From Acidimicrobiia bacterium (GTDB taxonomy: Bacteria > Actinomycetota > Acidimicrobiia > Spongiisociales > ZC4RG35), in NCBI GenBank assembly GCA_965220995.1, contig OZ244856.1, positions 97,407 through 161,406 on the forward strand: a stretch of 64,000 bases of DNA, read 5' to 3'. Below, piece by piece: positions 1-51,213 of the stretch (its first letter is position 1; each line of letters begins with the position of its first letter). The translations under genes and the position numbers were made by a program. Below the pieces are notes generated by a model. That model had not been told where the DNA came from. It did no database searches and saw nothing but the letters and a program-made list of their open reading frames with translations.

Positions 1-65
1 CCCGCGCCAAGGCCGAGTAGAGATGATGATGAGCGCAGACCAGCCCGGGGGTTTCCCGGCTCATG

Positions 66-2657
66 TCAGCGCCTTCGTCCCAAGGGGTAGTGCTTGTTGA
101 AGGGCAGTCGAGTGCGCCACACGCCATCCACCTGGTGCAAGGCGGCGGCCACCGCTCCGGCGGTGGGAACCAAACCGATCTCGCCCACGCCTTTGATCCC
201 GTACGGGGAGTTCGGCTGGGGGACCTCCACCAGGATCACGTCCACTTCCGGCATGTCCTTGGCGCGGATGATCCCCAGACTCCGCAGGGTCATGTTGGTG
301 GGCCGACTCTCGGTGTCGCAGGGGAAATCCTCGGTGAGCGCATAGCCCAATCCCATGTGGACGGATCCTTCGATCTGACCCTCACACAGCACCGGATTCA
401 CCGCTTTGCCCACATCGTGAGCCGCCACCACTCTCTCCACCTTGCCGGTGGCGGCATCGGCGATCACCAACTGGCTGGCATACCCGAAGGCAGAGTGGAT
501 GATGGGGTTTTCCGCTCCCTCGGACAAGCTGTTGGTCCAGTCCACCACCCAGGCGCCGTGGTAATCAACCCCCGTTTCGCAGCCACCTTCCAGGGCCTTG
601 CGGCAGGCGTCCGCCACCGAACCGGCCACCATCAGGGTGGCCCGGGAGCCAGTGGTCTGCCCGGCGCCCAGTTCGCGGGAGGTGTCCACCAGCACCTCGA
701 TCCGATCGGGATCGATTCCCAGTTCCTCCACCGCCACCTGCAGGGCCACCGTGTGAACTCCCTGCCCCATCTCGGTCCAGCAGTGGCGCACCTCCACCTT
801 CCCATTGGGCTTGAAGCACACCACCGATCTGGAAACTTCGCGGAAGCCGTTGCCCAAACCGGAGTTTTTCAACCCCAGGCCCACCCCAACGGCTTTGCCT
901 TCGGCAATCGCACGGTCGTAGTGAGGCTTGACCGCCTCCAAACAACGCTGTGCCCCGAGCGAGCCCTCGTCCATAATCTGTCCCGGCCCCCACACCGAAC
1001 CCGGCATCACCACATTGCGGGAGCGCATCTCCCAGCCGCTGATCCCCACCTTCTCGGCCAGCCGGTCCATGACCCCCTCCATGGCGAACTGAGCCTGGTT
1101 CGCCCCGAATCCCCGGAAAGCCCCGCACACCGAGTTGTTGGTGCGAACCGCCAGGGCCTCCACGTCGATGGCCCCCACCACGTAGGGCCCGCTGGCATGC
1201 CCGGCCGCCCGCTCCAGAACCTTCATTCCCACCGAGGCGTAGGGACCCGAATCGCCCAGCATGCGCGCCTTGAAGGCGGTGAGTCGGCCATCGGGGTCAC
1301 AGCCGGCCCACAGTTCGATGCGAATGGGATGCCGCTTGGGATGGATATGCAACGACTGCTCCCGGGTGAGAGTGCATTTCACCGATCTGCCCAGAAGATG
1401 GGCGGCCAAGGCGGTCTGGGCCTGGTTGGCCATGTCCTCCTTGCCGCCGAAGGCGCCCCCGTTGGACACCAACTCCACGGTTATGCGGGAGGGGTCCATC
1501 CCCAGCACCGAGGCGATCTGGTTGCGATCATCCCACACTCCCTGCCCTCCCGAATAGACGTGCAGGTCGCCGTTGGGCAGCGGGACCGCCACCGTCGACT
1601 CCGGCTCCAAAAAGGCGTGTTCCACCCGCTGGGTATGGAAAACCTCGTGCACGATGTGGGCCGACTCCGCCAGAGCCTGTTCCACGTCGCCCCGCCGGTA
1701 GGCCGAGCGGGACAGAAGGTTCCCCTCCAACCCCCACACCGCGTCCTCGGAGGACAGGGCCTGCTCGGGATCGCTCACCGGCGTGAGCACCCGGTATCGG
1801 ACCTCGATCAGGTCAGCCGCCTCTCGGGCGGTCTGGACGTCGGACGCCACCACCATGGCCAGGACATCCCCCGAATAGGAGGTTCGGCCTCCCACCGGGA
1901 TGAACACCGGCCAGTCCTGGTGGATCAGACCCACCCGAAGATCGCCGGGAACATCGGCGGCGGTTATCACTCTCACCACTCCCGGATATGCGGAAGCCGC
2001 CGCGGTGTCGATTCCCAGCACGTCGGCCCGGGAATGGTCGGTGAGCCGCAGGGCGGCGTGCAGCATCATGGGCGAGGCCAGGTCGTCTATGTAGGGCCGG
2101 TCGCCCAGGGACAACTCCATCGCCTCGTACTTGCAGCCGTTCTTGCCCACCCCGCCCGGACGGGCCACGGTGGGAATCGGCTCACCCGAGGCCAAAAGCT
2201 CGATGGCCTCCACGATCTTGGTGTAGCCGGTGCAACGGCACAGGTGGGCGCCCAGACGACCGTTGATGGTTTTGCGGTCCAAGGCCGAACCCTTCTGGTC
2301 GATCAGAGCCTTGGCTCGCATAACGATGCCGGGAGTGCAAAAGCCGCACTGCAATGCTCCGGTGGATGCGAACCCCCGGGCCAGTCGATCCCTCTCCACC
2401 GGATCGAGTCCTTCCAGGGTGACGATCTCTTTTCCCTGGATTCGCTGAAGCGGCATCTGGCAACTCACCACGGCCCGGCCGTTCACCAACACCGTGCAGC
2501 ACCCGCATTGTCCCGACGGAGCGCATCCGTCCTTGGCGGAGATAAGCCCCAACTCTTCTCGCAGGGCGGCCAACAGGTGGGGATGGTCGGCGCGCACCGC
2601 CACCTCTTTTCCGTTGACAAGGAAGGAAACAGTGGGTGGGGCTTGCATCATGGTCAT
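66..2657 (-). CDS. Xanthine dehydrogenase/aldehyde oxidoreductase family molybdoenzyme with fused N-terminal [2Fe-2S] ferredoxin domain (no FAD domain; Mop-like architecture)
   Basis: The N-terminus has the two 2Fe-2S cysteine clusters (CGCCTVLVNG, CGFCTPG, CRCTGY), followed by a long MoCo-binding a/b-hammerhead and MPT-binding domains. I moved the start to MTMMQA (ATG at 2657, GGAG RBS 7 nt upstream) rather than the track's 2690. Its antisense 880-aa ORF is spurious. Confidence 0.85.
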   Translation of the reverse strand: MTMMQAPPTVSFLVNGKEVAVRADHPHLLAALREELGLISAKDGCAPSGQCGCCTVLVNGRAVVSCQMPLQRIQGKEIVTLEGLDPVERDRLARGFASTGALQCGFCTPGIVMRAKALIDQKGSALDRKTINGRLGAHLCRCTGYTKIVEAIELLASGEPIPTVARPGGVGKNGCKYEAMELSLGDRPYIDDLASPMMLHAALRLTDHSRADVLGIDTAAASAYPGVVRVITAADVPGDLRVGLIHQDWPVFIPVGGRTSYSGDVLAMVVASDVQTAREAADLIEVRYRVLTPVSDPEQALSSEDAVWGLEGNLLSRSAYRRGDVEQALAESAHIVHEVFHTQRVEHAFLEPESTVAVPLPNGDLHVYSGGQGVWDDRNQIASVLGMDPSRITVELVSNGGAFGGKEDMANQAQTALAAHLLGRSVKCTLTREQSLHIHPKRHPIRIELWAGCDPDGRLTAFKARMLGDSGPYASVGMKVLERAAGHASGPYVVGAIDVEALAVRTNNSVCGAFRGFGANQAQFAMEGVMDRLAEKVGISGWEMRSRNVVMPGSVWGPGQIMDEGSLGAQRCLEAVKPHYDRAIAEGKAVGVGLGLKNSGLGNGFREVSRSVVCFKPNGKVEVRHCWTEMGQGVHTVALQVAVEELGIDPDRIEVLVDTSRELGAGQTTGSRATLMVAGSVADACRKALEGGCETGVDYHGAWVVDWTNSLSEGAENPIIHSAFGYASQLVIADAATGKVERVVAAHDVGKAVNPVLCEGQIEGSVHMGLGYALTEDFPCDTESRPTNMTLRSLGIIRAKDMPEVDVILVEVPQPNSPYGIKGVGEIGLVPTAGAVAAALHQVDGVWRTRLPFNKHYPLGRRR

Positions 2658-2670
2658 AATCTGCTCCGAA

Positions 2671-3627
2671 TCAAGGCGGGGGAATCGCACCGCGTCTTTC
2701 GCTGATCAACCGGTAGTGCTCGGGCACCCGGTAAAGATCGAAATTGAAAACGTTGTCCTTGTAAAAACGACAGAAATCCAGGTCGATCCGGGCCACGGCC
2801 AGTTCGTCGCCGTCGGTGATGGTCTGGCAGACGATCTGTCCGGAGGGAGCGATTATCACGCTCTGTGCGATGTTTTCCACCCCTTCCTCGATCCCCGCCT
2901 TGGCGACCCCCACCACCCAGCATCCGTTCTGATAGGCGCCGGCCTGCATGACCACGTGACTGTGAAAATTCTGGAGGGGGTTCTGCTGAGGATCAGCCGC
3001 GTAGTAATAGGGCGTGTTGTAGCCGATCAGGATCAACTCCACCCCCTGCAGGCCCATCACACGATAGGTCTCCGACCACCTCCGGTCGTTGCAGATGGCC
3101 ATCCCCACTATTCCCCCGAACGCCCTCCACACTCCAAAGCCGTCGGGGCCGGACTTGAAGAAGTGCCGTTCGGCGTGCTGGAATGGTCTCCACTCCTGGA
3201 TCTCCTCATGTCCGGGAATGTGAATCTTGCGGAACTTGGCAACCACCGATCCATCCCGTTCCACCAGGATCTGCGTGTTGTACCGATGCAGTACTCCGTC
3301 GGAATCGGTGTGCGCTTCCGCATAACCCAGGCAGAAGCCGATACCCAGGCGGGCCGCTTCATCGAACAGGGGCCGGGTGGCTTCCGACGGCATTTCCTTC
3401 TCGTAGAAGGCGAGCATTTCCTCTTCGTCTTCGATGTACCACCGAGGAAAGAAGGTGGTGAGGGTCAACTCGGGGAACACCAGCAACTCCACCCCCCGCT
3501 CGTGGGCCTCATGCAGCAGCGTCAACAGGCGTTTGACAACTTGCTCCCGACTCTCGTCCCGGGCGACGGGACCCACCTGCGCCATGCCTACCGTCAAGTT
3601 GCGACTCATGGGAACCGAATGTACCAT
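2671..3627 (-). CDS. N-carbamoyl-D-amino-acid hydrolase (D-carbamoylase), nitrilase/CN-hydrolase superfamily
   Basis: Strong resemblance to Agrobacterium D-carbamoylase throughout (VFPELTLTTFFPRW, ICNDRRW, NTPYYY; Glu/Lys/Cys triad context). The TGA stop is followed 13 nt later by the XDH-like start, so the two are likely co-transcribed. Confidence 0.85.
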   Translation of the reverse strand: MVHSVPMSRNLTVGMAQVGPVARDESREQVVKRLLTLLHEAHERGVELLVFPELTLTTFFPRWYIEDEEEMLAFYEKEMPSEATRPLFDEAARLGIGFCLGYAEAHTDSDGVLHRYNTQILVERDGSVVAKFRKIHIPGHEEIQEWRPFQHAERHFFKSGPDGFGVWRAFGGIVGMAICNDRRWSETYRVMGLQGVELILIGYNTPYYYAADPQQNPLQNFHSHVVMQAGAYQNGCWVVGVAKAGIEEGVENIAQSVIIAPSGQIVCQTITDGDELAVARIDLDFCRFYKDNVFNFDLYRVPEHYRLISERRGAIPPP

Positions 3628-3664
3628 GCTACTTTACATTTTGTCAAGTACAGGCCAGGGCCTC

Positions 3665-4318
3665 ATGTCCACACCTTCGCAGGTTCCGACATCCGAGAAT
3701 CCCGCCGGTCCGGGGGAACAGCCCACCGAGCACCGGCTGTGTCGCCTGGAATTCCTGGTGGAACCGTTCTTGGAAGGCAACCCCGGCCCTCACGTGCTGG
3801 CGCCGCTTCACCGGCTTCGCCGCCGGGCAATCCAGGTCAACCAGGGTCCGTTCGGGAACACCGTGGAGGGCGACCGGCGGACGGTAACCACCGCTCTCCT
3901 GACCATCCTGGAAAGCGCCTTCGACAACGGGGCTTCCCGCATATTGATCAATCTGTCCCAAGGAGAACCGAACACCCTCCCTTCCCAGGTCCCGCCCGGG
4001 CAATCTCCGGGTCAGGGTCCGGGCATCGCCCGCCGTGCGGGGGTGGCGGATGACCCGCCGCCGGGGGGAGGCGGTATGCTGGGCGCCACCCGGCCCGAGG
4101 ACATTCACGGGGCGGTTGATCGCATTGTCAGTGCGGTGGAGGATCAGATGGGAGGAGCGTTGGGAGACCTGTCCAGAGAGAAGAAACAGGCGGCCGTGCG
4201 AATCCTGGACGAACAGGGCGTCTTCCTGATCCGCAAGTCGGTGGAGACGGTGGCGGACGCCATGGGGGTGAGCCGGATAACAATTTACAACTATCTGAAC
4301 GCCATCCGCGGGGATTGA
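3665..4318 (+). CDS. Putative transcriptional regulator: N-terminal MTH1187/YkoF-like domain fused to C-terminal helix-turn-helix
   Basis: The C-terminus (DAMGVSRITIYNYLNAI) is HTH-like. The N-terminal 'EFLVEPFLEGNPGPHV...VNQGPFGNTVEG' resembles the MTH1187/YkoF ligand-binding fold. The start was taken at the ATG after the divergent carbamoylase gene, because the track's ORF overlaps that gene. Confidence 0.5.
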   Translation: MSTPSQVPTSENPAGPGEQPTEHRLCRLEFLVEPFLEGNPGPHVLAPLHRLRRRAIQVNQGPFGNTVEGDRRTVTTALLTILESAFDNGASRILINLSQGEPNTLPSQVPPGQSPGQGPGIARRAGVADDPPPGGGGMLGATRPEDIHGAVDRIVSAVEDQMGGALGDLSREKKQAAVRILDEQGVFLIRKSVETVADAMGVSRITIYNYLNAIRGD

Positions 4319-4394
4319 ATGCCAGAATGAGAGAAATGCGCGGTCTGACGATTACCTACCAGGGCGCCTTCCCCCGGTTGTCCGAGGAGGGTGA

Positions 4395-5576
4395 GTGAGT
4401 TCTTCCGGTTCGGCTGCGCAGCGTTCCCGACTGGCAAACCAATTGCTCTCCTACACTGTGCCGGCCTTGGCCGTGTTGGGAGCGTTGGCGATCGGGGCCT
4501 TGATGTTGGCCGCCCTGGGCGCCAATCCCTTCACCGGGTTCTGGGCGATGGCCAAGGGGGCGTTCGGAAGCAGCAACGCCCTGGTGGAGACCGCCCTCAA
4601 GTCAACCCCCCTCCTGCTGGTGGGGGTGGGCATCACCATCGCCTTCCGGGCCAACGTGATCAACATCGGAGGCGAGGGCCAGATGGTGTCGGGCGCCCTG
4701 GCCACCACCATCACCGCCCTGGGGATGACCGACGTCACGGTGTGGATCGCCCTTCCCCTGTCCCTTTTGGCGGGAATCCTGGGGGGAGCGCTGTGGGGCG
4801 CCATCCCCGGCGCCTTGAAGGCGTACTTCGGAGTCAACGAGATCCTCAGCACCATCATGCTCAACGTGGTGGCGGTGCAGGCCATGAACTATCTGCTCAG
4901 AGATCCGTTGATCGATCCGATGGAGATCGAACGGGGGACCAGAATTCCGCAGACCGCCCGGCTTCCCGAAAGCACCGACCTGCCGCTCTTCGTTGAAGGG
5001 GGGCGACTCCACATCGGCCCGGTGATTGCGGTGGCGGCCGCCGTGCTGGTGTACGTGTTGCTTTGGCGAACCACCTCCGGCTATCGGCTGCGGGCGGTGG
5101 GACTCTCGGGTGACGCGGCTCGCTATGCGGGGATGTCGGTGGAAAGAAACGTGGTCTGGGCACTGACTCTCAGTGGGGCGATGTCCGGGCTGGCGGGAGC
5201 GATCCTGGTGCTGGGGTCGGAGGGTCATCGGATGGTGACCGACGGCAGCACCATCGGTTTCACCGGCAGCGCCGGGTTCAACGGAATAGTGACGGCGCTG
5301 TTCGGGGGGTTGCATCCGTTGTGGACCATCCCCTCCTCGTTCTTGTTCGGAGGGCTCTTGGTGGGAGCCATCGCCCTGCAAAGGGCCGCGCAGGTCCCCA
5401 CCGCCCTGGTGCTGGCTCTGAACGGTCTGGTGGTCCTGTTTGTGGTCAGCCTGGATCGCTACCGCCAGCAGTTGAAGGAGCGGGAAGATCGGCGCGCCCT
5501 GGCCCTGGCCGAGGAAGATCAGGAGGAGGGTGACGCCGGCCCCTCTCCTTCGGAACAGGAACCGGACGATGGCTGA
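4395..5576 (+). CDS. ABC transporter permease (BMP/nucleoside-type uptake system, permease 1)
   Basis: Multi-TM hydrophobic protein with the conserved 'NIGGEGQM' permease motif. GTG start preceded by a GAGGAGG RBS. First gene of a + strand transporter operon. Confidence 0.8.
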   Translation: MSSSGSAAQRSRLANQLLSYTVPALAVLGALAIGALMLAALGANPFTGFWAMAKGAFGSSNALVETALKSTPLLLVGVGITIAFRANVINIGGEGQMVSGALATTITALGMTDVTVWIALPLSLLAGILGGALWGAIPGALKAYFGVNEILSTIMLNVVAVQAMNYLLRDPLIDPMEIERGTRIPQTARLPESTDLPLFVEGGRLHIGPVIAVAAAVLVYVLLWRTTSGYRLRAVGLSGDAARYAGMSVERNVVWALTLSGAMSGLAGAILVLGSEGHRMVTDGSTIGFTGSAGFNGIVTALFGGLHPLWTIPSSFLFGGLLVGAIALQRAAQVPTALVLALNGLVVLFVVSLDRYRQQLKEREDRRALALAEEDQEEGDAGPSPSEQEPDDG

Positions 5577-6501
5577 CATTTTCGCCGCCACCGTCATCGT
5601 GGCAACCTTGTCGTCGGGAATCCGATTGGCGGTCCCCCTTCTGCTGGCGTCGCTGGGAGAGGCGTTCGGGCAGCGCAGCGGAGTGCTCAACCTGGGAGTG
5701 GACGGAATCATGCTGCTCGGCGCCTTCGGCGGCTACTACACCACCCTGAAGACCCAGAGCCCCTGGATGGGCTTGGCGGTGGGTCTCTTGGTGGGGCTGG
5801 CCCTGGGCCTGCTGTCATCGGTGATAAGCGTTTCCCTGCGCGCCGAACAGGGGATCAGCGGTATCGGCGTGTACCTGTTCGGGCTGGGCATGAGCGACCT
5901 GCTGTTCCAGCGGCTGGTGGGGACCCCTCTGCCCGTCAAGCCCTTCACCAAGACACCCATACCCGGTCTGTCGGAGATTCCGGTGCTGGGGGACCTGTTC
6001 TTCAATCACAGCATCCCCATCTACCTGGCCTTTTTGTCCGTACCCATCGCCACGGTGATCATCAACCGGACCCGGTTCGGGATGAACATCCGGGCGGTGG
6101 GGGAGAACCCCGAGGCGGCCGACTCCCAGGGAGTCAGCGTCACCCGGGTCCGTTATGCCGCCGTCACCATCGGGGGAGTGCTGGCGGGTGCGGCGGGTGC
6201 GGTTCTCGCCATCAGCCTGGGGATCTTCCAGCAGAACCTCACCAACGCCCAAGGCTTCATAGCCATCGCCTTGGTGTATTTCGGAGCGTGGAGACCGCTG
6301 GGGGTGATGGCCGGATCCCTGGTGTACGGGATGGTCTCGGCAATAGTGCTGCTGCTCAAGACCCGGGGGATCATCCCCCTGGGGGCCTCCGACCTGGCCG
6401 CCATGATCCCGGCGGTGATCACCGTCCTGGCCCTGGTGCTGGCGGCCCGGCGCTTCCGGGCCCCCACCGCTCTCACCAAGCCTTTCATAAGAGGGGGATA
6501 G
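5569..6501 (+). CDS. ABC transporter permease (permease 2)
   Basis: Multi-TM protein. MADIF start overlaps the end of permease 1, suggesting translational coupling. Typical second permease of BMP-family uptake systems. Confidence 0.8.
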   Translation: MADIFAATVIVATLSSGIRLAVPLLLASLGEAFGQRSGVLNLGVDGIMLLGAFGGYYTTLKTQSPWMGLAVGLLVGLALGLLSSVISVSLRAEQGISGIGVYLFGLGMSDLLFQRLVGTPLPVKPFTKTPIPGLSEIPVLGDLFFNHSIPIYLAFLSVPIATVIINRTRFGMNIRAVGENPEAADSQGVSVTRVRYAAVTIGGVLAGAAGAVLAISLGIFQQNLTNAQGFIAIALVYFGAWRPLGVMAGSLVYGMVSAIVLLLKTRGIIPLGASDLAAMIPAVITVLALVLAARRFRAPTALTKPFIRGG

Positions 6502-6554
6502 ATATTTCTTTCCCAATCTGTCAAATACAACCGAACCTACCCAAGGAGTAACTG

Positions 6555-8567
6555 ATGAACCTGTTTAGAAAGCCTGGTTTGGCCAGGCTATGGGTGCTGG
6601 CGGCCCTGTTGGCTTTGGTGGCCGCCGCCTGCGGAGACGACGCAGAGGAGCCGGCTGCGACCACCGCGGCTCCCACCACCCAAGCGGCCGAGGAGCCGGC
6701 GCCCGCCCCCGACGACGAGGCGCCCGCCCCCGACGAGCCGGAAGCACCGATGGAGCCGCTGCGGATTGCGGTGGTTGCGCCGAGCGCCTCCAATGATTTG
6801 GCGTTCACGCAGAGCATCGTGGATGCAGTGAACGTGATTGTGGATGAGCATCCGGGCACCGAGGTGGCCATCACCGACGGCACCTTCATTGTGGAGGACG
6901 CGGCGGCGGCCATCCGCGGTTATGCCGAAGAGGGCTATGACCTGGTGATCGCTCATGGTTCCCAATATGGCGGGTCTTTGCAGGAGATCGCCGGGGACTT
7001 CCCCGACACGGCGTTCGCCTGGGGTACCTCCGCTGACACCCTGGGCCAGCCCAATGTCTCGGCCTACACCGCCGCCTCCGACCAGGGAGGCTACGTAATG
7101 GGCAGAATGGCCGCAGTGCTGTCCCGGTCAGGTGTGATCGGGGTGGTCGGCCCCATCGAGGTGGGCGACGCCAAGCTGTTCGTGGACGGTTTCGCCAACG
7201 GCGCCAAGGCGCAGGACGCGGTGACCGTCAACATCAACTACATCGGTTCGTTCAGTGACGTGGCGTTGGCCTCCGAAGCCGCCCAGGCGCATATCGCGTC
7301 GGGCGCCGATGTTTTGACCGGATCGGCCCAGATGGTGGTCGGCGCGGTGGGTGTCGCTCAGGCCAACGCAACTCTGTGGTTCGGCACTCAGGCCAACCAG
7401 ACATCCCTGGCGCCCGATCTGGTGGTGGCTTCCCAGGTGTACAAGTGGGAAGTGGTGTTGCGCGACATCATCGCCGACATCTCCGCCGGTTCACTGGGTG
7501 GAGAGGCCTACGAGATCAACCTCGCCAACGGGGGCCTGGTGGTCGAATACAACGACGGATTCCCCCTGCCCGACGAGGTGCGCACTCTCGCCGAGAGCAC
7601 CATCTCGGGAATAATCGACGGGAACATCAACACCATGGATCAGATGATGGTGGAAGAACCCGAGCCGATGGAGCCGCTGCGGATTGCGGTGGTTGCGCCC
7701 AGCGCCTCCAATGATTTGGCGTTCACGCAGAGCATCGTGGATGCAGTGAACGTGATTGCCGGCGAACATCCGGGCACCGAGGTGGCCATCACCGACGGCA
7801 CCTTCATTGTGGAGGACGCGGCGGCGGCGATCCGCGGCTATGCCGAAGAGGGCTATGACCTGGTGATTGCCCACGGTTCCCAATATGGTGGATCGTTGCA
7901 GGAGATCGCCGGGGACTTCCCCGACACGGCCTTCGCCTGGGGTACCTCGGCCGACACCTTCGGCCTCCCCAATGTCAGCGCTTACACCGCCGCCTCCGAC
8001 CAGGGAGGCTACGTGATGGGCGTGGTGGCCGCCAATATCTCCGAATCGGGAGTGATCGGCGTGGTCGGCCCCATCGAGGTGGGCGACGCCAAGCTGTTCG
8101 TGGACGGTTTCCACAACGGCGCGGTGGCCACTCGGGGCGACGTGACCGTGAACATCAACTACATCGGTTCGTTCAGTGATGTGGCGTTGGCTTCCGAGGC
8201 CGCCCAGGCTCATATCGCCGCCGGAGCGGATGTCCTGACCGGATCGGCCCAGATGGTGGTCGGCGCGGTGGGCGTCGCTCAGGCCAACGATGTCTATTGG
8301 TTCGGCACTCAGGCCAACCAGACATCCCTGGCGCCCGATCTGGTGGTGGCTTCCCAGGTGTACAAGTGGGAAGTGGTGTTGCGCGACATCATCGCCGACA
8401 TCTCCGCCGGTTCACTGGGCGGTCAGGCCTACGAGATCAACCTGGCCAACGGCGGACTGGTGTTGGAGCCCAATCCGGCATTCGACATACCTCCGGAGTT
8501 GTTTGCCCAGGTTGCCGCCGTGGTTCAGGGAATCATCGACGGCAGCGTCGACACCGGCGCCAACTAG
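6555..8567 (+). CDS. Tandem-duplicated BMP-family (PnrA/Med/TmpC-like) ABC substrate-binding lipoprotein
   Basis: Signal peptide with lipobox (LVAAACGDD), then an Ala/Pro/Glu-rich linker and two roughly 305-aa BMP-like modules. Each module begins MEPLRIAVVAPSASNDLAFTQSIVDAVNVI..., and the two are about 90% identical. Confidence 0.8.
   Translation: MNLFRKPGLARLWVLAALLALVAAACGDDAEEPAATTAAPTTQAAEEPAPAPDDEAPAPDEPEAPMEPLRIAVVAPSASNDLAFTQSIVDAVNVIVDEHPGTEVAITDGTFIVEDAAAAIRGYAEEGYDLVIAHGSQYGGSLQEIAGDFPDTAFAWGTSADTLGQPNVSAYTAASDQGGYVMGRMAAVLSRSGVIGVVGPIEVGDAKLFVDGFANGAKAQDAVTVNINYIGSFSDVALASEAAQAHIASGADVLTGSAQMVVGAVGVAQANATLWFGTQANQTSLAPDLVVASQVYKWEVVLRDIIADISAGSLGGEAYEINLANGGLVVEYNDGFPLPDEVRTLAESTISGIIDGNINTMDQMMVEEPEPMEPLRIAVVAPSASNDLAFTQSIVDAVNVIAGEHPGTEVAITDGTFIVEDAAAAIRGYAEEGYDLVIAHGSQYGGSLQEIAGDFPDTAFAWGTSADTFGLPNVSAYTAASDQGGYVMGVVAANISESGVIGVVGPIEVGDAKLFVDGFHNGAVATRGDVTVNINYIGSFSDVALASEAAQAHIAAGADVLTGSAQMVVGAVGVAQANDVYWFGTQANQTSLAPDLVVASQVYKWEVVLRDIIADISAGSLGGQAYEINLANGGLVLEPNPAFDIPPELFAQVAAVVQGIIDGSVDTGAN
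6750..8567 (+). repeat. Imperfect tandem duplication (period about 918 bp, 2 copies) encoding the two BMP modules
   Basis: ATGGAGCCGCTGCGGATTGCGGTGGTTGCGCC recurs at 6750 and 7668. The copies differ by scattered substitutions (e.g. ...GTGATTGTGGATGAGCAT vs GTGATTGCCGGCGAACAT). Confidence 0.8.
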
Positions 8568-8607
8568 CCGAAAACGGAAACAAGGAACGTCTGACAGGGT
8601 GAGCGCG

Positions 8608-10128
8608 ATGACCAATCTCTTGGAGATGCGGGGAGTCACCAAGCGCTTCCCCGGCGTGCTGGCCAATGATCGAATCGATTTCGATCTGCGCGCCGGGGAG
8701 GTGCACACCCTGTTGGGAGAAAACGGCGCCGGCAAGAGCACCCTGATGAAAATCCTCTACGGGCTCTATCAGCCTGACGAGGGGGAGCTTTTGATCGGTG
8801 GGGCACCCACTCGGATCGGAAGCCCGATCGACGCCATTGAGCACGGGATCGGGATGGTGCACCAACACTTCATGCTGGTTCCCAGTCTCACGGTCACCGA
8901 GAACGTGGCGATGGGCGCCATCTCACGCAAGAGAAGCAGGATGAACCTGCGGGGGGTGGCCGATCGGATCCGGGAACTGTCGGAATCTCATGGGCTGGCC
9001 GTCGATCCCGACGCTCACATTTGGCAACTGTCGGTGGGCGAACGCCAAAGGGTGGAGATCATCAAGGCCCTGTATCGGGATGTCAAGATGCTGGTGCTGG
9101 ACGAACCCACCGCGGTGTTGACTCCCGGCGAGGTGGAGGATCTGTTCAACATCCTCCGTCAGATGGCCCAGGAGGGGCGGGGTCTGGTGTTCATCTCTCA
9201 CAAACTCCATGAGGTGCTGGCCCTGAGCGACCGGATCACCGTTCTTCGCCATGGCCGGGTGACCGGGGAGGTGGAGGCCGGGGAAGCCACCCGCGAGATG
9301 CTGGCTTCGATGATGGTGGGCCGTCCGGTCCGCCTTGCGCCCGACAAGCCGCCCTTGGCGCCGGGTCGGACCCGTTTGAATATCCGCGATCTGACGGTCA
9401 TGGGCGACCGGGGCCTTCCGGCCCTGCAGAACCTGGACCTGCAGGTCCGGGAAGGAGAGATTCTGGGTGTGGCCGGCGTCTCGGGTAACGGGCAACGCGA
9501 GTTGGCCGAGGCCATAGCCGGACTGCGGAAACCGGTTTCGGGAGCGATCGAAGTCAACGACAACGACGTGGCGGGCCGCAAGCCTTCCGCAGTGAGAGCG
9601 GCAGGTTTGGCCTACGTGCCCGAGGAACGAGAGCGGGACGGCGCCATCGGCGCTTTCACCGTGTCGGAGAATCTGATTCTGGTGAACCATGACCAGCCCC
9701 CCATGAGCCGCAGGGGTTTTTTGCGCAACGGCGAGATTCGCAGTCGCGGCCGGCGTTTGGTCGACAATTTTTCGGTGGTTACTCCCGGTTTGGATGTTCC
9801 GGCTTCCAATCTTTCGGGAGGCAACCTGCAAAAGCTGATACTGGCTCGGGAACTATCGGGTTCGCCTTCCGTGCTGGTGGCGTCCCAACCCACCCGGGGA
9901 GTGGATATCGGCGCCGCCGAGTACATCCATGATCGCCTCATCCAGCAGCGCGGCTCCCAGTCGGTGGCCATCCTGCTGATATCCGAGGACCTGGACGAGG
10001 TGTTGGGTTTGGCCGATCGGATTGTGGTGATCTATGAGGGCCGCATCGTGGGAGAAGTAAGCGGGGAGGAAGCAGACCGCCAGACCATCGGTTTGATGAT
10101 GGCCGGCGTGGGGGTCGCAGAGGAGTGA
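8608..10128 (+). CDS. ABC transporter ATP-binding protein with duplicated ATPase domains (sugar/nucleoside type)
   Basis: Two Walker A motifs (GENGAGKST; GVSGNGQRE), an LSGG/LSVGE signature and two Walker B motifs. Start set at MTNLLEMRGV, because the track ORF begins inside the SBP gene. Confidence 0.85.
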   Translation: MTNLLEMRGVTKRFPGVLANDRIDFDLRAGEVHTLLGENGAGKSTLMKILYGLYQPDEGELLIGGAPTRIGSPIDAIEHGIGMVHQHFMLVPSLTVTENVAMGAISRKRSRMNLRGVADRIRELSESHGLAVDPDAHIWQLSVGERQRVEIIKALYRDVKMLVLDEPTAVLTPGEVEDLFNILRQMAQEGRGLVFISHKLHEVLALSDRITVLRHGRVTGEVEAGEATREMLASMMVGRPVRLAPDKPPLAPGRTRLNIRDLTVMGDRGLPALQNLDLQVREGEILGVAGVSGNGQRELAEAIAGLRKPVSGAIEVNDNDVAGRKPSAVRAAGLAYVPEERERDGAIGAFTVSENLILVNHDQPPMSRRGFLRNGEIRSRGRRLVDNFSVVTPGLDVPASNLSGGNLQKLILARELSGSPSVLVASQPTRGVDIGAAEYIHDRLIQQRGSQSVAILLISEDLDEVLGLADRIVVIYEGRIVGEVSGEEADRQTIGLMMAGVGVAEE

Positions 10129-10180
10129 CCCCTCGAGTCAAGCCCGGTGAACAGCAGCCCATAACAGAGGAGGCGCCTTT

Positions 10181-11026
10181 ATGTCCAGCCAAGTGGTAAC
10201 CGCCGCTCTTGTCCAGTCGGAATGGACCGGTGACAAGGAGTCGATGGTGGAAAAGAACATCGGCTATGCCAGGGAAGCCGCCTCCCGGGGGGCCCGGGTG
10301 CTGTGTTTCCAGGAGATTTTCAACAGCCCCTACTTCTGCAATGTGCAGGACAGCGACAACTATTCCTACGCCGAGCCGATCCCCGACGGCCCCACTATCA
10401 CCAGGATGATTTCTTTGGCCCGCGAGACCAAGATGGTGCTGGTGGTTCCCATCTATGAGGTGGTGGACGAGGGGACCTTTTACAACGCCGCGGCGGTGAT
10501 CGACGCCGACGGAACCTACCTGGGAAAATATCGCAAGACCCATATTCCCCAGGTGAAGGGTTTCTGGGAAAAGTTCTATTTCAAGCCGGGGAACCTGGGC
10601 TACCCCGTGTTCGACACCGCAGTGGGAAGAATCGGCGTGTACATCTGCTACGATCGCCACTTCCCCGAAGGGTGGCGGGTGCTGGGCCTGAAAGGCGCCC
10701 GGATCGTTTTCAACCCTTCCGCCACCACCCGCGGGCACTCCAAGCACCTCTGGCAACTGGAGCAGCCCGCCTCGGCCGTGGCCAACGAATACTTCGTGGG
10801 CGCTATCAACCGGGTGGGATCCGAGGGCCTGACGGACACCGATTATTACGGGTCCTCATACTTTGTCAATCCCCGCGGAGAGATAGTGGGAGAAACCGCG
10901 TCGGATACCGAGGAAGAGGTGTTGGTGCGCCAACTTGATCTGGGACTGGTGGAAGAGGTCCGCCGTTACTGGGCCTTCTACCGGGACCGCCGACCCGAGG
11001 TCTACGAAGAGGTGGCGGCTCCCTGA
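10181..11026 (+). CDS. Beta-ureidopropionase / N-carbamoyl-amine amidase-like CN-hydrolase (nitrilase superfamily)
   Basis: Nitrilase-superfamily fold with catalytic-Cys context 'GVYICYDRHFPE', 'VLCFQE', 'FYFKPG'. It resembles beta-alanine synthase / N-carbamoylputrescine amidase and is the last gene of the transporter operon. Confidence 0.8.
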   Translation: MSSQVVTAALVQSEWTGDKESMVEKNIGYAREAASRGARVLCFQEIFNSPYFCNVQDSDNYSYAEPIPDGPTITRMISLARETKMVLVVPIYEVVDEGTFYNAAAVIDADGTYLGKYRKTHIPQVKGFWEKFYFKPGNLGYPVFDTAVGRIGVYICYDRHFPEGWRVLGLKGARIVFNPSATTRGHSKHLWQLEQPASAVANEYFVGAINRVGSEGLTDTDYYGSSYFVNPRGEIVGETASDTEEEVLVRQLDLGLVEEVRRYWAFYRDRRPEVYEEVAAP

Positions 11027-11290
11027 TCCCGGGTTGAGACCCTTGGGAGAGATCGCGAAAAAAGCAGGCCGGTAGGGCTTGACATCGGTCGCAGCCTCTC
11101 CTACATACTGATCAGACCAAACACCTCCCGGTCCGCTCCGGCGCCGTTCGGACTGCGCAGACTCCTGTGAAAAGAGGTCATACTCCTATCGGATCGCGGT
11201 CCGGCTCATCACTGCTGGCCACCCGCGTCCCGATCCCTGGCTAGGTGGCGGTGGGGGTGGGGCCCGACGGACGGGAAAATCCGGGCCGTT

Positions 11291-12716
11291 TTTAAGCGGT
11301 ACTTCGGAAATTAGTGGGGAGTGATGGTTGCGAGGAGTTTCCAGTTGGGTTTTCCGGCGTAGAGGAGTGCTCGGATTCGGTAGTTGTCGAAGTTCCGAAA
11401 ACCGAATGCTGCTCGTTTGATCCGTTTGATCAGGTTGTTCAGTCCCTCGGTGGGTCCGTTCGTCACTTTCGAGTGATGCCAGTTGGTGATCTGGGTGGCC
11501 CACCTGCTGATGGTCCGTCCCAGGCGGTTCACCTCTGGAGGGAGTGACCGGTCCTGCAGATCCGAGGCCAGCTGCTGGGTGAACTCCCAAGCCAGTTGTG
11601 GGTCTCCGATCTGGTAGATGTCCCGGACGCTTTCCTTAGCCGACCAGGCATCCCGTACCTCTCCGTAGGGGTCACCAGCCCGTAACAAGCCCCGGAGGCG
11701 GGATTCGCCGTGGCTGTCGATCCTTTCATGGGCCATTATCAAAAGCCGTCGTATGCGATACAGCGGGTCGCGTTTGCGTCCCCGGTGTCCCAGTGTCTCG
11801 TTCTGCACCCGGCATCGGACCTGATCGACGGTGCGGTTAGCCAACCTGATGACATGAAACGGGTCAGCCACCTGAAAGGCGTGGGGCAACACCTGGTCGT
11901 AGGCCACCTGATAAGGGCCGGACAAGTCCAACACCGCCCACTTGATCGCCTCACGCCACCCCTCTGGTTGGTTCCGGAACCAACCAGCCGCGCTTTTTAC
12001 GGTTCTACCAGGCACTATGTCCAACAACTGACACCCACCGACATCCACCACCGACGTGCACCACTGCTTGGTACGCCACCGGCCCTTCTTCCAGAACAGG
12101 GTCTCGTCCACTCCCACCGCCTCCACCCGCCCGAACCGGGCGGTGTCGGCTTCCAACAGCGACTTTCCCCATCGGACGGTCTCCTGGTTCACCGTATGCC
12201 AATCACACCCCAACTCGGCGGCCACCTCCGACACAGTACGCCCCAAACGGCCCACCTGATAAGTGACCCACCGCCCCGCCCGAGACGTCAACAAAGCCCG
12301 CTCCGGCGCCACCGACTCGTCCTGTTCCACAAACGACCCCACGCCGCATTCCCCATCAGGACACATCCAACGACGTTTCCGCCACCGCAACCGCACCGGC
12401 CGCCCAAACGCCGGCAAATCCACCAACCCCACCGTCCGATAGCCCTTCGACCACACCCCACCACCGCACTCATCGCATACTGGACGAAAAGCGCCCGATC
12501 TGATCGTCACCCTCAACCGGTCACCCGAAAGCTCCTCCACCCCTACCAAGTCCACGTCACCCAACCCGACCAACACCTCACACATACGCCTACCATCAGT
12601 CTCCACAGGGTCCTCCTTTCAGATGCGACTGCTTTCAGCACCCGATTATGGAGGACCCTCCCCCACAATCAATGGATTCCCCACTCCCCACTAATTTCCG
12701 AAGATCCTTTTAAGCG
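11291..12716 (-). mobile_element. ISL3-family insertion sequence, apparently intact
   Basis: Terminal inverted repeats of about 32-35 bp, with a perfect 22-bp core CTTCGGAAATTAGTGGGGAGTG at 11302-11323 and its reverse complement at 12683-12704. These flank a single full-length transposase ORF, and the length of about 1.43 kb is typical of ISL3. Confidence 0.8.
11311..12606 (-). CDS. ISL3 family transposase
   Basis: The C-terminal hallmark TNGPTEGLNNLIKRIKRAAFGFRNFDNYRIRALLY is typical of ISL3 transposases. The reading frame is intact at 431 aa. The 345-aa ORF on the opposite strand is spurious. Confidence 0.9.
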   Translation of the reverse strand: METDGRRMCEVLVGLGDVDLVGVEELSGDRLRVTIRSGAFRPVCDECGGGVWSKGYRTVGLVDLPAFGRPVRLRWRKRRWMCPDGECGVGSFVEQDESVAPERALLTSRAGRWVTYQVGRLGRTVSEVAAELGCDWHTVNQETVRWGKSLLEADTARFGRVEAVGVDETLFWKKGRWRTKQWCTSVVDVGGCQLLDIVPGRTVKSAAGWFRNQPEGWREAIKWAVLDLSGPYQVAYDQVLPHAFQVADPFHVIRLANRTVDQVRCRVQNETLGHRGRKRDPLYRIRRLLIMAHERIDSHGESRLRGLLRAGDPYGEVRDAWSAKESVRDIYQIGDPQLAWEFTQQLASDLQDRSLPPEVNRLGRTISRWATQITNWHHSKVTNGPTEGLNNLIKRIKRAAFGFRNFDNYRIRALLYAGKPNWKLLATITPH

Positions 12717-27171: not shown

Positions 27172-28145
27172 GCGGCCCCAAGGTAGCCCTGATCGAGGAG
27201 TACACCCCCGCTCAGGTGGCGGCCCTTCAGCAGGCCCTGCCGGCCGGGGCCACCGTGCTCACCGATGCACTGGGGTCGGGGACCATCAAGCAGGCCGACT
27301 ATCTGGTGCTCCTGGAGCAAAGCCCCGACGACGACCAGCTAGGGGCGTTGTCGTCGCTGCGGGGAGTGGTCACCATCGACTCGGGCGGCGCCGCCGTCTC
27401 TTCCGACATCTGCGATTCCCTGGGGGCGTGGACCGAAGGGGTGGTGTCCCCGGGGCCGACCAGTGTGGCCGAACACACTGTGATGATGATCCTGGCCCTG
27501 TTCAAGCGCCTTCCCATCGCCCAGCAACGCCTGATGGACGGGGTGATCGTGGAGGGCATGGCCCCGTTCGTAACCGACCAGGAAAACTATTCCTACAACT
27601 GGGTGGGCCTGGATTTGTTCGAGGCCCTGCTGGGCAAGACCGTGGGTTTGGTGGGGGTAGGCCAGATCGGATTGGTGGCGGCCAAGCTGTTGGTGGCCTT
27701 CGGAGTGGATGTGGTCTACTACAAGCGCAGTCGCTTCTCGCCCGAGGAGGAGGCCGAATTGCAAATCCGTTACCTTCCCTTCGATGAACTGCTGGCCGAG
27801 TCTCATTGCGTGTCGCTTCACAACCGGTTTACCCCCGAGACCGAGAAGATGATGGGCGCCCGGGAGTTTGCCCTGATGCCCAAGGGCTCGTTCTTCGTAA
27901 ACACGGCCCGGGGCCGGTTGGTGGACGAGGACGCCCTGATGGCGGCCCTGCACAGCGGGCACCTGGCCGGAGCGGCCCTCGATGTCTTCTGGTGGGAGCC
28001 GATTCTTCCCGACAGTCCCCTGCGCAGCACTCCCAACCTCCTGATGACCCCCCATACCGCCGGCACGCCGATGGGCGACACTGTGGCCCTGGAACTGGGA
28101 TCCGCCGGAAGGGTGATCCGCCGGCGACACGGAACGGCGCCATGA
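27168..28145 (+). CDS. D-isomer-specific 2-hydroxyacid dehydrogenase (NAD-binding)
   Basis: 'GKTVGLVGVGQIGLVAAK' NAD-binding motif and a catalytic His/Glu/Arg context. GTG start overlaps the upstream stop (GTGA). Confidence 0.75.
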   Translation: MSGPKVALIEEYTPAQVAALQQALPAGATVLTDALGSGTIKQADYLVLLEQSPDDDQLGALSSLRGVVTIDSGGAAVSSDICDSLGAWTEGVVSPGPTSVAEHTVMMILALFKRLPIAQQRLMDGVIVEGMAPFVTDQENYSYNWVGLDLFEALLGKTVGLVGVGQIGLVAAKLLVAFGVDVVYYKRSRFSPEEEAELQIRYLPFDELLAESHCVSLHNRFTPETEKMMGAREFALMPKGSFFVNTARGRLVDEDALMAALHSGHLAGAALDVFWWEPILPDSPLRSTPNLLMTPHTAGTPMGDTVALELGSAGRVIRRRHGTAP

Positions 28146-37774: not shown

Positions 37775-38098
37775 TCAGAAGAACCGGAGGAGTATCCCCA
37801 CTGCTCCGAGGATCGCCAAGGCTATCCACACGGTGCGTCCGAAGGCCCTGTGCAGTCCGGCGATCTGTACCTCGATTTTGGCGATCTCCACTTCAATTCT
37901 GCTGTTGAGGGTGGTCTCCAGTCGGTCCATTCGACCGTTGAGGCTCCCTTCCAGTTGGTCCATTCGACCGTTGAGGCTCCCTTCCAGTCGGTCCATCCTG
38001 TTTTCCAGGTCGTGTTTGACCAGCATGACGTCGCCTTTGGTGGCGGGTTTCGTCATCCAGTCGTCCTCGGCGATCAACTTTTCTACCTCCAGAGCCAT
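37775..38098 (-). CDS. Small coiled-coil protein with C-terminal transmembrane anchor (DUF1640-like), containing an 11-aa tandem repeat
   Basis: RMDRLEGSLNG / RMDQLEGSLNG / RMDRLETTLNS repeats, then a hydrophobic tail 'VWIALAILGAVGILLRFF'. Confidence 0.5.
   Translation of the reverse strand: MALEVEKLIAEDDWMTKPATKGDVMLVKHDLENRMDRLEGSLNGRMDQLEGSLNGRMDRLETTLNSRIEVEIAKIEVQIAGLHRAFGRTVWIALAILGAVGILLRFF
37925..38010. repeat. 33-nt tandem repeat (about 2.6 copies) inside the small coiled-coil gene
   Basis: TCCATTCGACCGTTGAGGCTCCCTTCCAGTTGG is repeated head-to-tail, as seen directly in the sequence. Confidence 0.6.
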
Positions 38099-38315
38099 CG
38101 CATCCTCCCTTCGGGCTGGTTTGCTATATGTCCCCCTATTGGACCTGCTTTCTGTGGCATGCTACCCCAATACGGGAGTAATGCAACCCCGACTACGACC
38201 TAGCGCCGGGAGATGTCAGAGAAGATTGCGGTCTAGATAAGAAGAGTCGAGGCACGCCCGCAGTACGGCGTTGGAGACCGCAGCCTCACAATAGGCACCG
38301 TTCATATGTGAACTT

Positions 38316-40508: not shown

Positions 40509-40534
40509 ACCGTCCACATCATCTAACAAAGAGA

Positions 40535-40560
40535 TGGAGGCTCCCCAACCGGGGAGCCTC
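40535..40560. terminator. Perfect hairpin GGAGGCTCCCC-aacc-GGGGAGCCTCC between the two convergent SLH genes (bidirectional terminator candidate)
   Basis: 11-bp stem and 4-nt loop in the 77-bp gap between the convergent genes. Confidence 0.5.
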
Positions 40561-40585
40561 CATCAGATAGTCAAGTGTTTTCTGT

Positions 40586-48893: not shown

Positions 48894-49804
48894 AGCCTGA
48901 CGTGTCGGTTCCCTGGACCCAAAGGGTGATCGCGGTGGTGGGAGGGGACCGCCGGGAGCAGGAGATCGCCCGTCGGGCCGCCGCCACCGGCGCCACGGTG
49001 CGCGCCCACGGGTTCCCCTGGCCCGGCCACGGTATTCCCAAGGTTGTGAACTGTTCCACTCCCATCGCAGCGTTGGCAGGCGCCCACTTCGGGCTGCTTC
49101 CCATCCCCGGCATTGCCCCGAATGGCGCTCTCTTCGCACCCTCGGCTCCGCAACCGATTTTCGTCGGGGTCACGGCGTTGGAAGCCATGGCCGAGGGCGC
49201 CCACCTAATCCTGGGCGCTTCCGACCGGCGCCTGCGGGAGGCGGCCGAGCAGGTGGGCATTGGCATCTCCGAATACGAGGATGACCGCGAGTTGATGTTG
49301 CGCAGGGGTCCGGCGATCGTGGAGGGGGCGGTGGGAAAGATTATCGAACTAACCGAGATCACCATCCACAACGCCAGGGTGGGAGTGGTCGGGCAGGGAA
49401 CCATCGGCTCTCTGCTCACTCGCACCCTGGTATTGCTGGGAGCCCGCGTCCTGGTGGCGGCCCGCAGTCCCGTCCAGCGGGCGGCATCGGAGACGATCGG
49501 CGCATCCGCGGTTCCTCTTCACCGGTTTTCCGACCATGTCCATCGTCTGGATATGCTGGTTTCCACCGTTCCTGCGCCGGTGGTGGGGGAAGACCTGCTG
49601 CGGCGCCTTCCGAAGGGAAGTCTGGTGATGGACCTGGCGGCCCCGCCGGGAGGAGTTGACCTGAGCCGGGCGGCGGCGCTGGGCCACGTCACCTGCTGGG
49701 CCAGAGGTTTGGGCGACCGGGCGCCGGTCACGGTTGGGGCATCCCAATGGGACGGCATACGCAAGAGAATCGAAGAGATCGAAGAGGCAAGGAATGCAGG
49801 CTGA
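48887..49804 (+). CDS. DpaA-like protein (dipicolinate synthase subunit A / SpoVFA family; NAD(P)-binding)
   Basis: Collinear similarity to B. subtilis SpoVFA: 'RVIAVVGGDRREQEIARR' vs 'KKIAVIGGDARQLEIIRK', 'VGVVGQGTIGSLLTRTLVLLGARVLVAARS' vs 'VAVLGLGRTGMTIARTFAALGANVKVGARS', 'LVMDLAAPPGGVDL' vs 'LILDLASRPGGTDF'. Confidence 0.75.
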   Translation: MVEPDVSVPWTQRVIAVVGGDRREQEIARRAAATGATVRAHGFPWPGHGIPKVVNCSTPIAALAGAHFGLLPIPGIAPNGALFAPSAPQPIFVGVTALEAMAEGAHLILGASDRRLREAAEQVGIGISEYEDDRELMLRRGPAIVEGAVGKIIELTEITIHNARVGVVGQGTIGSLLTRTLVLLGARVLVAARSPVQRAASETIGASAVPLHRFSDHVHRLDMLVSTVPAPVVGEDLLRRLPKGSLVMDLAAPPGGVDLSRAAALGHVTCWARGLGDRAPVTVGASQWDGIRKRIEEIEEARNAG

Positions 49805-51140: not shown

Positions 51141-51213
51141 TTGGGAAGATGCCGGCGAACCGTTCCCGCAGTCATAGCATTGCCGAGATGAGACGCGAGC
51201 CGGAGAGCAGTCG

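Follow-up and report, generated by a model that had tools for sequence, protein, structure and literature searches.

The 64,000-nucleotide stretch analyzed here (“the window”; positions 97,407 to 161,406 of contig OZ244856.1 in the Acidimicrobiia bacterium assembly GCA_965220995.1) opens with a divergent catabolic module in which a molybdoenzyme and a D-carbamoylase on the minus strand face a regulator, a BMP-type ABC importer, and a second CN-hydrolase on the plus strand. Sequence comparisons make it probable that the module is what the window shows of an Acidimicrobiia form of the reductive (2,8-dioxopurine, or “yanthine”) degradation of uric acid and purines. The genes named in a preliminary description of this DNA are present in the order and orientation given there, as judged from Pfam and NCBIfam matches and from the genes called on a sister contig (ENA ERZ25072299 contig_9), which is 99.6% identical to the window and from which gene starts were fixed. 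Codon-position G+C marks a single clear gene set within positions 1 to 11,100 (window G+C, ∼63%). The same description suggested a purine- or pyrimidine-derived or hydantoin-like substrate, of which the purine-derived option is supported by purine-gene neighborhoods in related loci and contigs, and treated the genes as one functional module, a view with which conserved synteny and the divergent promoter region agree.

The 2,8-dioxopurine pathway was published in 2025 (PMC12507026; bioRxiv 10.1101/2025.04.24.650524; commentary PMC12990295). In it, XdhD-YgfM or a fused selenium-dependent XdhAC converts urate reductively to 2,8-dioxopurine; the ring is reduced by YgfK, elsewhere by a PydA-like UacX or, putatively, an F420 LLM enzyme; SsnA opens the ring to give ureidomethylhydantoin; HyuA opens the hydantoin to 2,3-diureidopropionate; YgeW/YqeA or UacY, plus YgeY, take off both ureido groups; and YgeX converts 2,3-diaminopropionate to pyruvate (PMC12507026; bioRxiv 10.1101/2025.04.24.650524). 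Li et al. already noted F420 LLM replacement in Chloroflexota, clusters with SsnA among the Actinomycetota, and a modular exchange of enzymes (PMC12507026). The urate cluster of Escherichia coli comprises xdhD-ygfM, ygfK, ssnA, hyuA, and ygeW-yqeA, along with ygeY and ygeX, while that of Clostridium has xdhAC, ygfK or uacX, and uacY; in Enterococcus faecalis, the fused xanthine dehydrogenase (XDH)-type gene EF_2570 sits in a 2,8-dioxopurine pathway cluster.

The molybdoenzyme (positions 66 to 2657, minus strand, 863 amino acids [aa]; its longest open reading frame [ORF], the form used in the preliminary description, extends to 2690) had been taken for an ordinary XDH, but by its domains and model matches it appears to be an enzyme of the fused XdhAC type that lacks the flavin adenine dinucleotide (FAD) module. 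A single chain carries Fer2, Fer2_2, Ald_Xan_dh_C, MoCoBD_1, and MoCoBD_2 (two [2Fe-2S] clusters, hammerhead, and molybdenum cofactor-binding regions), and the Pfam scan found no FAD domain. The best model by far, matched over its full length, is TIGR03311 (“selenium-dependent xanthine dehydrogenase,” 822.8 bits), compared with 427 bits for aldehyde oxidoreductase and 194 bits for TIGR03313 (E. coli XdhD). In the alignment, the equivalents of the purine-binding residues Glu802, Arg880, and Glu1261 of rat xanthine oxidoreductase (XOR) are kept (in GGKE, KRHP, and GVGE), whereas the best solved match, the Desulfovibrio aldehyde oxidoreductase (MOP), has GYKF at the Glu802 site and thus lacks that glutamate. 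We propose that the enzyme acts between urate and 2,8-dioxopurine. The copy on the sister contig differs from that in the window by at least one residue.

The minus-strand operon continues past the window edge, which the preliminary description did not include. The window sequence MSRETPGLVCAHHHLYSALAR (coding positions 2 to 64 within positions 1 to 64, minus strand) is the start, comprising the first 21 codons, of a 338-aa gene (L003:13546-14562) that is the next gene of the operon. On the sister contig, the order past the molybdoenzyme is this 338-aa amidohydrolase, then a 597-aa Fe-S protein, then an EamA transporter. The SsnA models are the best for the amidohydrolase (NF005540, 254 bits, profile positions 59 to 341 of 444; TIGR03314, 240 bits), and it is 31.9% identical to residues 56 to 438 of E. 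coli SsnA; because the alignment starts at residue 56, we regard it as an SsnA relative without the first ∼55 residues. The 597-aa protein, which carries a 2×[4Fe-4S] domain, matches TIGR03315 (YgfK) with 431.6 bits over profile positions 2 to 397 and aligns to E. coli YgfK residues 3 to 405 (38.8% identity) and 898 to 978 (38%). Fer4_20 and Pyr_redox_2 lie at residues 453 to 532 and 552 to 839 of E. coli YgfK, so that what the short protein misses (residues ∼406 to 897) is exactly the Fe-S/FAD/NAD(P)H module, while the N-terminal substrate domain and the C-terminal 2×[4Fe-4S] domain are retained. A PDB sequence search with this protein returned generic ferredoxin-domain matches only. Short YgfK-like genes of ∼580 to 600 aa (from tblastn coordinates) also occur in related loci. 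The SsnA-like and YgfK-like genes were missing from the preliminary description because both lie just outside the window.

Two CN-hydrolases accompany these genes. The first (positions 2671 to 3609, minus strand, 312 aa), the first gene of the minus-strand operon, is by homology a D-carbamoylase-family enzyme, as had been proposed: it matches solved N-carbamoyl-D-amino-acid hydrolases with 391 bits (6lei) and 351 bits (1fo6), and its specificity for the D configuration is predicted. Its FPE, FRKIH, and ICNDRRW motifs align with what we take to be the catalytic Glu/Lys/Cys and the carboxylate-binding Arg-Arg of the reference sequence, both the reference and the residue roles being assumed. The second (positions 10181 to 11026, plus strand, 281 aa; PF00795, 218 bits) belongs, in line with its previous designation as beta-ureidopropionase-like, to the beta-ureidopropionase/N-carbamoylputrescine amidase branch, with 196 bits to the plant N-carbamoylputrescine amidohydrolase 5h8i and 169 to 181 bits to animal beta-ureidopropionases (181 bits to 2vhh). 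We propose that the first removes a 2-ureido group and the second a 3-ureido (beta-ureido) group. Orthologs of the second enzyme (79 to 80% identity) lie amid purine genes on four independent metagenome contigs, where the neighbors are a classical two-subunit XDH, a cytidine/guanine-type deaminase, adenosine deaminase, and pyridoxal phosphate (PLP)-dependent enzymes; a D-carbamoylase ortholog adjoins it on three of the four and the XdhAC-like gene on two.

Two of the PLP-dependent (PALP) genes, of ∼490 to 500 and 370 to 386 aa, recur beside the second CN-hydrolase and purine genes (L087, 6399 to 9036; L090, 7356 to 9978; and 17 of 80 genome loci). The longer protein weakly resembles cysteine synthase/SbnA-type enzymes, and the pair possibly handles diaminopropionate.

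Comparative genomics places these genes in a wider setting. A scan with one genome per species yielded 80 loci with a molybdoenzyme 67 to 89% identical to that of the window, nearly all labeled Acidimicrobiia or Actinomycetota, with a few probable misbinnings; a homolog was counted as a neighbor if it lay no more than 10 kb to either side of the molybdoenzyme and reached ≥50% coverage. An SsnA-like gene is found in 70 of the 80 loci, and the reductase takes the form of an F420-type LLM enzyme in 34, a short YgfK in 13, and a full-length YgfK in 12. In 35 loci, the gene immediately upstream of the molybdoenzyme is D-carbamoylase; an M20 hydantoinase/carbamoylase-family amidase is present in 30, and the second CN-hydrolase is present in 5. 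Less frequent are 8-oxoguanine deaminase and a BMP binding protein (16 loci each), a separate XDH FAD subunit (15 loci), YgeX diaminopropionate ammonia-lyase (14 loci), YgeY and HyuA (3 loci each), and YgeW with YqeA (2 loci); adenine deaminase, phosphoribosyltransferases, and carbamoyltransferases are further neighbors. Representatives score above model cutoffs for diaminopropionate ammonia-lyase (298.6 bits against 276, NF006058), 8-oxoguanine deaminase (539 against 532), and the M20 amidase (454.6 against 452). The usual order is M20 amidase, D-carbamoylase, XdhAC-like, SsnA-like, LLM or short YgfK, and then YgeX or 8-oxoguanine deaminase. Because D-carbamoylase adjoins the molybdoenzyme in 35 of the 80 loci and a homolog of the regulator is present in 22, the arrangement of the module is no chance juxtaposition.

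The ureidases alternate across these loci. Among the 35 with D-carbamoylase, 25 have the M20 amidase and 5 the second CN-hydrolase (1 locus having both), while 6 have neither, several of which sit at contig ends. The second CN-hydrolase would thus appear to behave as a replacement for the M20 enzyme, and two ureidases per locus fit a predicted diureido intermediate. No orthologs of YgeW/YqeA, UacY, or YgeY were found in the window.

Selenium-related genes occur beside the cluster in some relatives. YqeB and YqeC are accessory proteins by which selenium-dependent molybdenum hydroxylases can be recognized; L030, L033, and L046 have homologs of both (E about 1e-80 for YqeB) no more than 10 kb away (∼4 to 9 kb downstream of the molybdoenzyme), and a YqeC homolog is additionally present in L015 and L016; SelD was found in none of the fetched locus stretches. 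These neighbors hint that a labile-selenium cofactor trait exists in the mostly aerobic Acidimicrobiia. With respect to the reductase, the cluster described here has the short YgfK and not the F420-type enzyme of 34 relatives. Elsewhere in the window (positions 62334 to 63113), an LLM-class F420-dependent oxidoreductase exceeds the TIGR03856 cutoff (396 bits against 243.7), and for this reason the organism probably uses coenzyme F420.

The plus-strand genes, between which intergenic gaps are ≤76 bp and no terminator-like sites were found, include a complete importer: two BPD_transp_2 permeases (positions 4395 to 5576 and 5569 to 6501; PF02653, 141.6 and 146.4 bits; both called on the sister contig), a Bmp substrate-binding lipoprotein (positions 6555 to 8567, 670 aa) with a signal peptide ending, in the translation, in LVAAAC, and an ATPase with two ABC_tran domains (positions 8608 to 10128, 506 aa; PF00005 twice; NF047930, 512.9 bits, cutoff 670). 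None of the “B6 transporter” equivalog models is matched above its cutoff, and the substrate is therefore not set by family. The preliminary description called the importer nucleoside type; the binding protein is nearer to purine-base binders, its closest solved relatives being AtzT (6pi5, 75 bits) and the Brucella BMP protein (3s99, 73 bits). AtzT co-purified with guanine (PMC6834077). Because AtzT is closest and the nucleoside binder PnrA reaches just 31 bits, a purine base is more likely than a nucleoside as the ligand. The binding protein is an in-frame tandem of two whole Bmp domains, a duplication that had escaped the preliminary description; protein identity between the halves is 90%, and the DNA copies (positions 6747 to 7546 and 7665 to 8467) are 90 to 95% identical with a period of 918 to 921 nucleotides. 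The same double-Bmp fusion was found in two other assemblies.

In the nearest species, L005, the 674-aa binding protein has two Bmp domains that are identical over the first 264 residues, while orthologous domains differ by ∼12% between the window species and L005, which suggests gene conversion or repeated recent duplication. The N-terminal copy in the window has diverged in a few patches, e.g., GRMAAVLSRSG versus GVVAANISESG, possibly as the start of a second specificity.

The divergent regulator (positions 3665 to 4318, plus strand, 217 aa) consists of an MTH1187/UPF0045 N-domain, a Pro/Gly-rich linker, and an HTH_22 domain (71.7 bits), which we take to be the kind of DNA-binding domain of YheO/DauR-type regulators. 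This linker, of ∼50 residues, is an extra feature of the window copy. On the regulator alone, PF01910 (Thiamine_BP/DUF77) matches weakly (E of 0.005 to 0.007, 17 bits against a cutoff of 24.9). Among 809 homologs, mostly from Acidimicrobiia and other Actinomycetota, precomputed annotation gives a majority PF13309 with PF01910, and a profile of 23 family members matches UPF0045/MTH1187 structures (1yqh, 3.9e-5; 2eky, 1.6e-4; 1vk8, 2.7e-4), compared with an E value of 0.43 for YkoF itself. The N-domain therefore belongs to the MTH1187/YkoF superfamily, and the earlier “YkoF-like” label holds at the superfamily level. As far as could be found, the family in which this domain is fused to HTH_22 is uncharacterized. 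Most of the homologs in the related loci are divergent from the molybdoenzyme operon and sit immediately upstream of it. The divergent region is 55 bp long, and a consensus scan found in it a promoter-like site, TTGACA-18-TACATT with a TG (10 of 12 matches; positions 3647 to 3618, minus strand), which ends 8 nucleotides before the D-carbamoylase ATG and overlaps the upstream region of the regulator. The promoter-like block is kept in L005, the nearest species-level relative, while the flanking intergenic sequence differs; an operator search of the 55 bp found no inverted repeats.

We propose the following pathway, for which we infer the substrate of each step, the electron donor, the way in which the molybdoenzyme reaction runs, and the ligand of the regulator. 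(i) The BMP-type importer, with its tandem-domain binding lipoprotein of the purine-base kind, would take up a purine. (ii) The FAD-less XdhAC-type molybdoenzyme would interconvert urate and 2,8-dioxopurine, the shortened YgfK would reduce the ring, and the truncated SsnA-like amidohydrolase would open the pyrimidine ring. (iii) An enzyme that the cluster does not encode would open a second ring, giving 2,3-diureidopropionate. (iv) D-Carbamoylase would take off the 2-ureido group, as from an N-carbamoyl-D-alpha-amino acid, and the beta-ureidopropionase-like second CN-hydrolase would take off the 3-ureido group to leave 2,3-diaminopropionate, which the diaminopropionate ammonia-lyase clustered in relatives may convert to pyruvate and ammonia. 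(v) The divergent MTH1187-domain/HTH_22 regulator would control the operons, presumably by sensing a pathway metabolite.

Several observations weigh against this assignment to urate degradation. The core proteins score below the equivalog cutoffs, narrowly for the molybdoenzyme (822.8 bits against 830.45 for TIGR03311) and widely for the SsnA-like (254 against 444 for NF005540; 240 against 455.5 for TIGR03314) and YgfK-like (431.6 against 835.3) proteins. The tie of TIGR03311 to the E. faecalis and clostridial XdhAC enzymes is drawn partly from what we take to be the description of the model, and identity of the molybdoenzyme to the characterized E. coli XdhD is only 23.7%. No HyuA-type hydantoinase is linked to the cluster, and a HyuA homolog is present in just 3 of the 80 related loci; YgeX was found neither in the window nor in the 7 kb beyond it, and YqeB, YqeC, and SelD are absent from the window. 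Acidimicrobiia are mostly aerobes. The pathway, however, is presented in the literature as an anaerobic one, confined to organisms that are obligate or facultative anaerobes and live mainly in animal guts (PMC12990295). Finally, Liu et al. single out the XOR changes F1009V and A1078T/S for the clostridial DOPDH (bioRxiv 10.1101/2025.04.24.650524), and the molybdoenzyme has Phe and Gly at these positions; comparison of the active site with E. coli XdhD and XdhA was uninformative, the alignment being too divergent around the F1009 region.

The main rival explanation, which we consider unlikely, draws on these same features: the identical logic of hydroxylation, reduction, hydrolysis, and decarbamoylation would act on a different N-heterocycle, such as another oxopurine (8-oxoguanine derived, or 2- or 8-hydroxypurines), a pteridine, or a pyrimidine analogue, with an oxidative molybdoenzyme and another N-carbamoyl-D-amino acid as the end product. 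Scores under the equivalog cutoffs, active-site positions unlike those reported for DOPDH, the missing hydantoinase, and presumably aerobic hosts are all compatible with it, and with a truncated SsnA-like protein and a YgfK-like protein without its NADPH module, specificity could have shifted. Nevertheless, the diaminopropionate ammonia-lyase in 14 related clusters, with YgeY, YgeW, and YqeA elsewhere, points to the C3 end product of the urate pathway, and the paired ureidases fit a diureido intermediate. In addition, the 8-oxoguanine deaminase, classical XDH, and guanine and adenosine deaminases found nearby all feed urate.

The preliminary description favored the classic hydantoinase/dihydropyrimidinase route for exogenous hydantoins or dihydropyrimidines, completed by three cyclic amidohydrolases elsewhere in the window, and this we judge very unlikely. 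The module does contain a bona fide D-carbamoylase-family enzyme and a beta-ureidopropionase-like hydrolase, and of the four Amidohydro_1 genes in the window, two (rather than three) are of the dihydroorotase (DHOase)/allantoinase/hydantoinase type (positions 30835 to 32193 and 49734 to 51140); the others are Xaa-Pro-dipeptidase-like (29550 to 30794) and of the deaminase/chlorohydrolase group (55369 to 56832). Both candidates, however, fall below every curated cutoff, at 28% and 31% identity, respectively, to E. coli HyuA, and no orthologs of either occur near the module in 84 related loci. As they lie at distances of 20 and 39 kb, each among unrelated genes, and no linkage is conserved, they were rejected as pathway members. 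Conservation with the module is seen instead for the SsnA-like gene, the YgfK-like or F420 reductases, and YgeX, and no dihydropyrimidine dehydrogenase of the PreT/PreA type was seen.

That the genes are unrelated neighbors, e.g., an N-carbamoylputrescine amidase of polyamine synthesis beside an aldehyde oxidoreductase, is highly improbable: the best NCBIfam model for the second hydrolase is AguB (TIGR03381), its best PDB match is the plant enzyme, several sources label its homologs “N-carbamoylputrescine amidase,” and the best solved match of the molybdoenzyme is an aldehyde oxidoreductase, but the AguB score (261.8 bits) is far under the cutoff of 410.25, no agmatine deiminase (AguA) was found nearby or in the window, orthologs of the hydrolase recur beside D-carbamoylase and in purine-gene neighborhoods, on which grounds together with the score the polyamine reading was rejected, and the molybdoenzyme, unlike MOP, has the equivalent of XOR Glu802 and scores 823 bits with TIGR03311 against 427 bits with the aldehyde oxidoreductase model.

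If the locus does belong to reductive urate degradation, a more far-reaching proposal can be advanced tentatively: presumed aerobes, namely environmental Acidimicrobiia, among them symbionts of sponges and lineages from soil and sludge, may possess a rebuilt oxygen-independent pathway in which CN-hydrolases perform the removal of ureido groups, the redox pair lacks NAD(P)H and FAD modules, HyuA is not needed, and a DUF77-HTH_22 protein acts as the sensor. To our knowledge, the natural substrate of D-carbamoylase, an industrial enzyme, is unsettled; the proposal would give it one (D-2,3-diureidopropionate or 3-amino-2-ureidopropionate) and hence a suggested physiological role, and would support the proposed D stereochemistry. 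The order and stereochemistry of ureido cleavage are open in the field, and a carbamoylase of predicted D specificity in the operon argues for a D-configured 2-ureido intermediate. Also open in the field is the electron donor of XdhAC. Neither redox enzyme here has an NAD(P)H module, and XdhAC and the short YgfK may exchange electrons via their Fe-S chains with each other or with a classical XDH, which would make hypoxanthine breakdown redox neutral. The DUF77-HTH_22 protein would be a new type of purine-metabolite sensor.

The steps of the proposed pathway appear to be interchangeable, with the reductase in three forms (F420 LLM, short YgfK, and full YgfK) and removal of the ureido groups assigned, from locus to locus, to different sets drawn from D-carbamoylase, M20 amidase, the second CN-hydrolase, YgeY, and YgeW/YqeA. 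The literature searched for the pathway does not describe a truncated SsnA, a short YgfK, CN-hydrolase ureidases, a BMP importer, or a DUF77-HTH_22 regulator. With a conserved and rebuilt version in at least 80 species of Acidimicrobiia, the pathway would have a wider ecological range.

Other features of the window lie outside the module. An ISL3-family insertion of 1,409 bp (positions 11299 to 12707; transposase ORF at 11311 to 12606, minus strand), not included in the preliminary description, begins 272 bp past the last gene of the module and is flanked by a 9-bp duplication (positions 11290 to 11298 and 12708 to 12716). It is a recent, strain-level event, because it is missing from the otherwise 99.6%-identical contig. 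A megablast search of the first 12 kb of the window against plasmids gave no match. Between roughly 34 and 42 kb, G+C falls from ∼0.64 to between 0.56 and 0.60, and this region (positions 32278 to 42859) holds an AAA_14/DUF4143 ATPase (32278 to 33540), an overlapping 1,383-aa ORF without a Pfam family (33537 to 37688), ∼2.5 kb without a convincing ORF (38.1 to 40.6 kb), and an SLH-domain surface protein (40586 to 42859); it may be an acquired island or a defense-type locus. In a separate small cluster (positions 47100 to 51810), a 597-aa protein that has both ferredoxin-NADP-reductase-like and Pyr_redox_3 domains is accompanied by a DpaA_N/2-hydroxyacid-dehydrogenase-like protein, the hydantoinase/allantoinase-like protein at 49734 to 51140, and a quinone reductase of the flavodoxin-like kind. 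This cluster, which is not conserved with the purine module, may be another unit for the catabolism of cyclic amides. Two further long ORFs are well coding, with a high third-position G+C: one of 572 aa (positions 27806 to 29524; 0.77), between a 2-hydroxyacid dehydrogenase and two amidohydrolases, has no Pfam or NCBIfam match, and one of 755 aa (positions 59669 to 61936; 0.83), which follows an ABC ATPase and permease pair, has no Pfam match.

Among known systems, the locus resembles the urate clusters of E. coli and Clostridium in that a molybdoenzyme of fused FAD-less XdhAC architecture is followed directly by SsnA-like and YgfK-like genes and in that related loci add YgeX, YgeY, HyuA, YgeW/YqeA, and YqeB/YqeC, with reductases swapped modularly. 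Several differences set it apart. Compared with the E. coli proteins, the SsnA-like enzyme has 338 rather than 442 aa and lacks the N-terminal stretch, and the YgfK-like protein lacks Fer4_20 and the FAD/NAD(P)H module. Here two CN-hydrolases presumably cleave off the ureido groups, in place of YgeW/YqeA or UacY with the M20 enzyme YgeY; there is no linked HyuA; a BMP-type ABC importer is found where published clusters have NCS2 permeases and a DUF77-HTH_22 regulator where they have sigma54/YgeV; and where the known hosts are anaerobes of the gut, those of this locus type are environmental Acidimicrobiia.

With the hyu systems of Agrobacterium, Nitratireductor, and others (1erz, 1fo6, and 6lei) the locus shares a close D-carbamoylase homolog (351 to 391 bits) with its catalytic motifs, but there is no adjacent D-hydantoinase, racemase, or hydantoin permease, and D-carbamoylase instead heads an XdhAC-SsnA-YgfK operon. 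Reductive pyrimidine catabolism (PydA/PreTA, PydB, and PydC) has the same succession of ring reduction, hydrolysis, and removal of a ureido group, and the second CN-hydrolase resembles the eukaryotic beta-ureidopropionases of the PydC step (169 to 181 bits); in contrast, orthologs of dihydropyrimidine dehydrogenase and dihydropyrimidinase are lacking here, and the neighbors are purine rather than pyrimidine genes. The importer has the same four-component architecture as those of the BMP/PnrA family, from which it differs in having two 90%-identical Bmp domains in one lipoprotein and a low similarity to PnrA (31 bits). The regulator, lastly, is like the MTH1187/UPF0045 proteins in the profile of its N-domain and unlike them in that this domain is fused to HTH_22.

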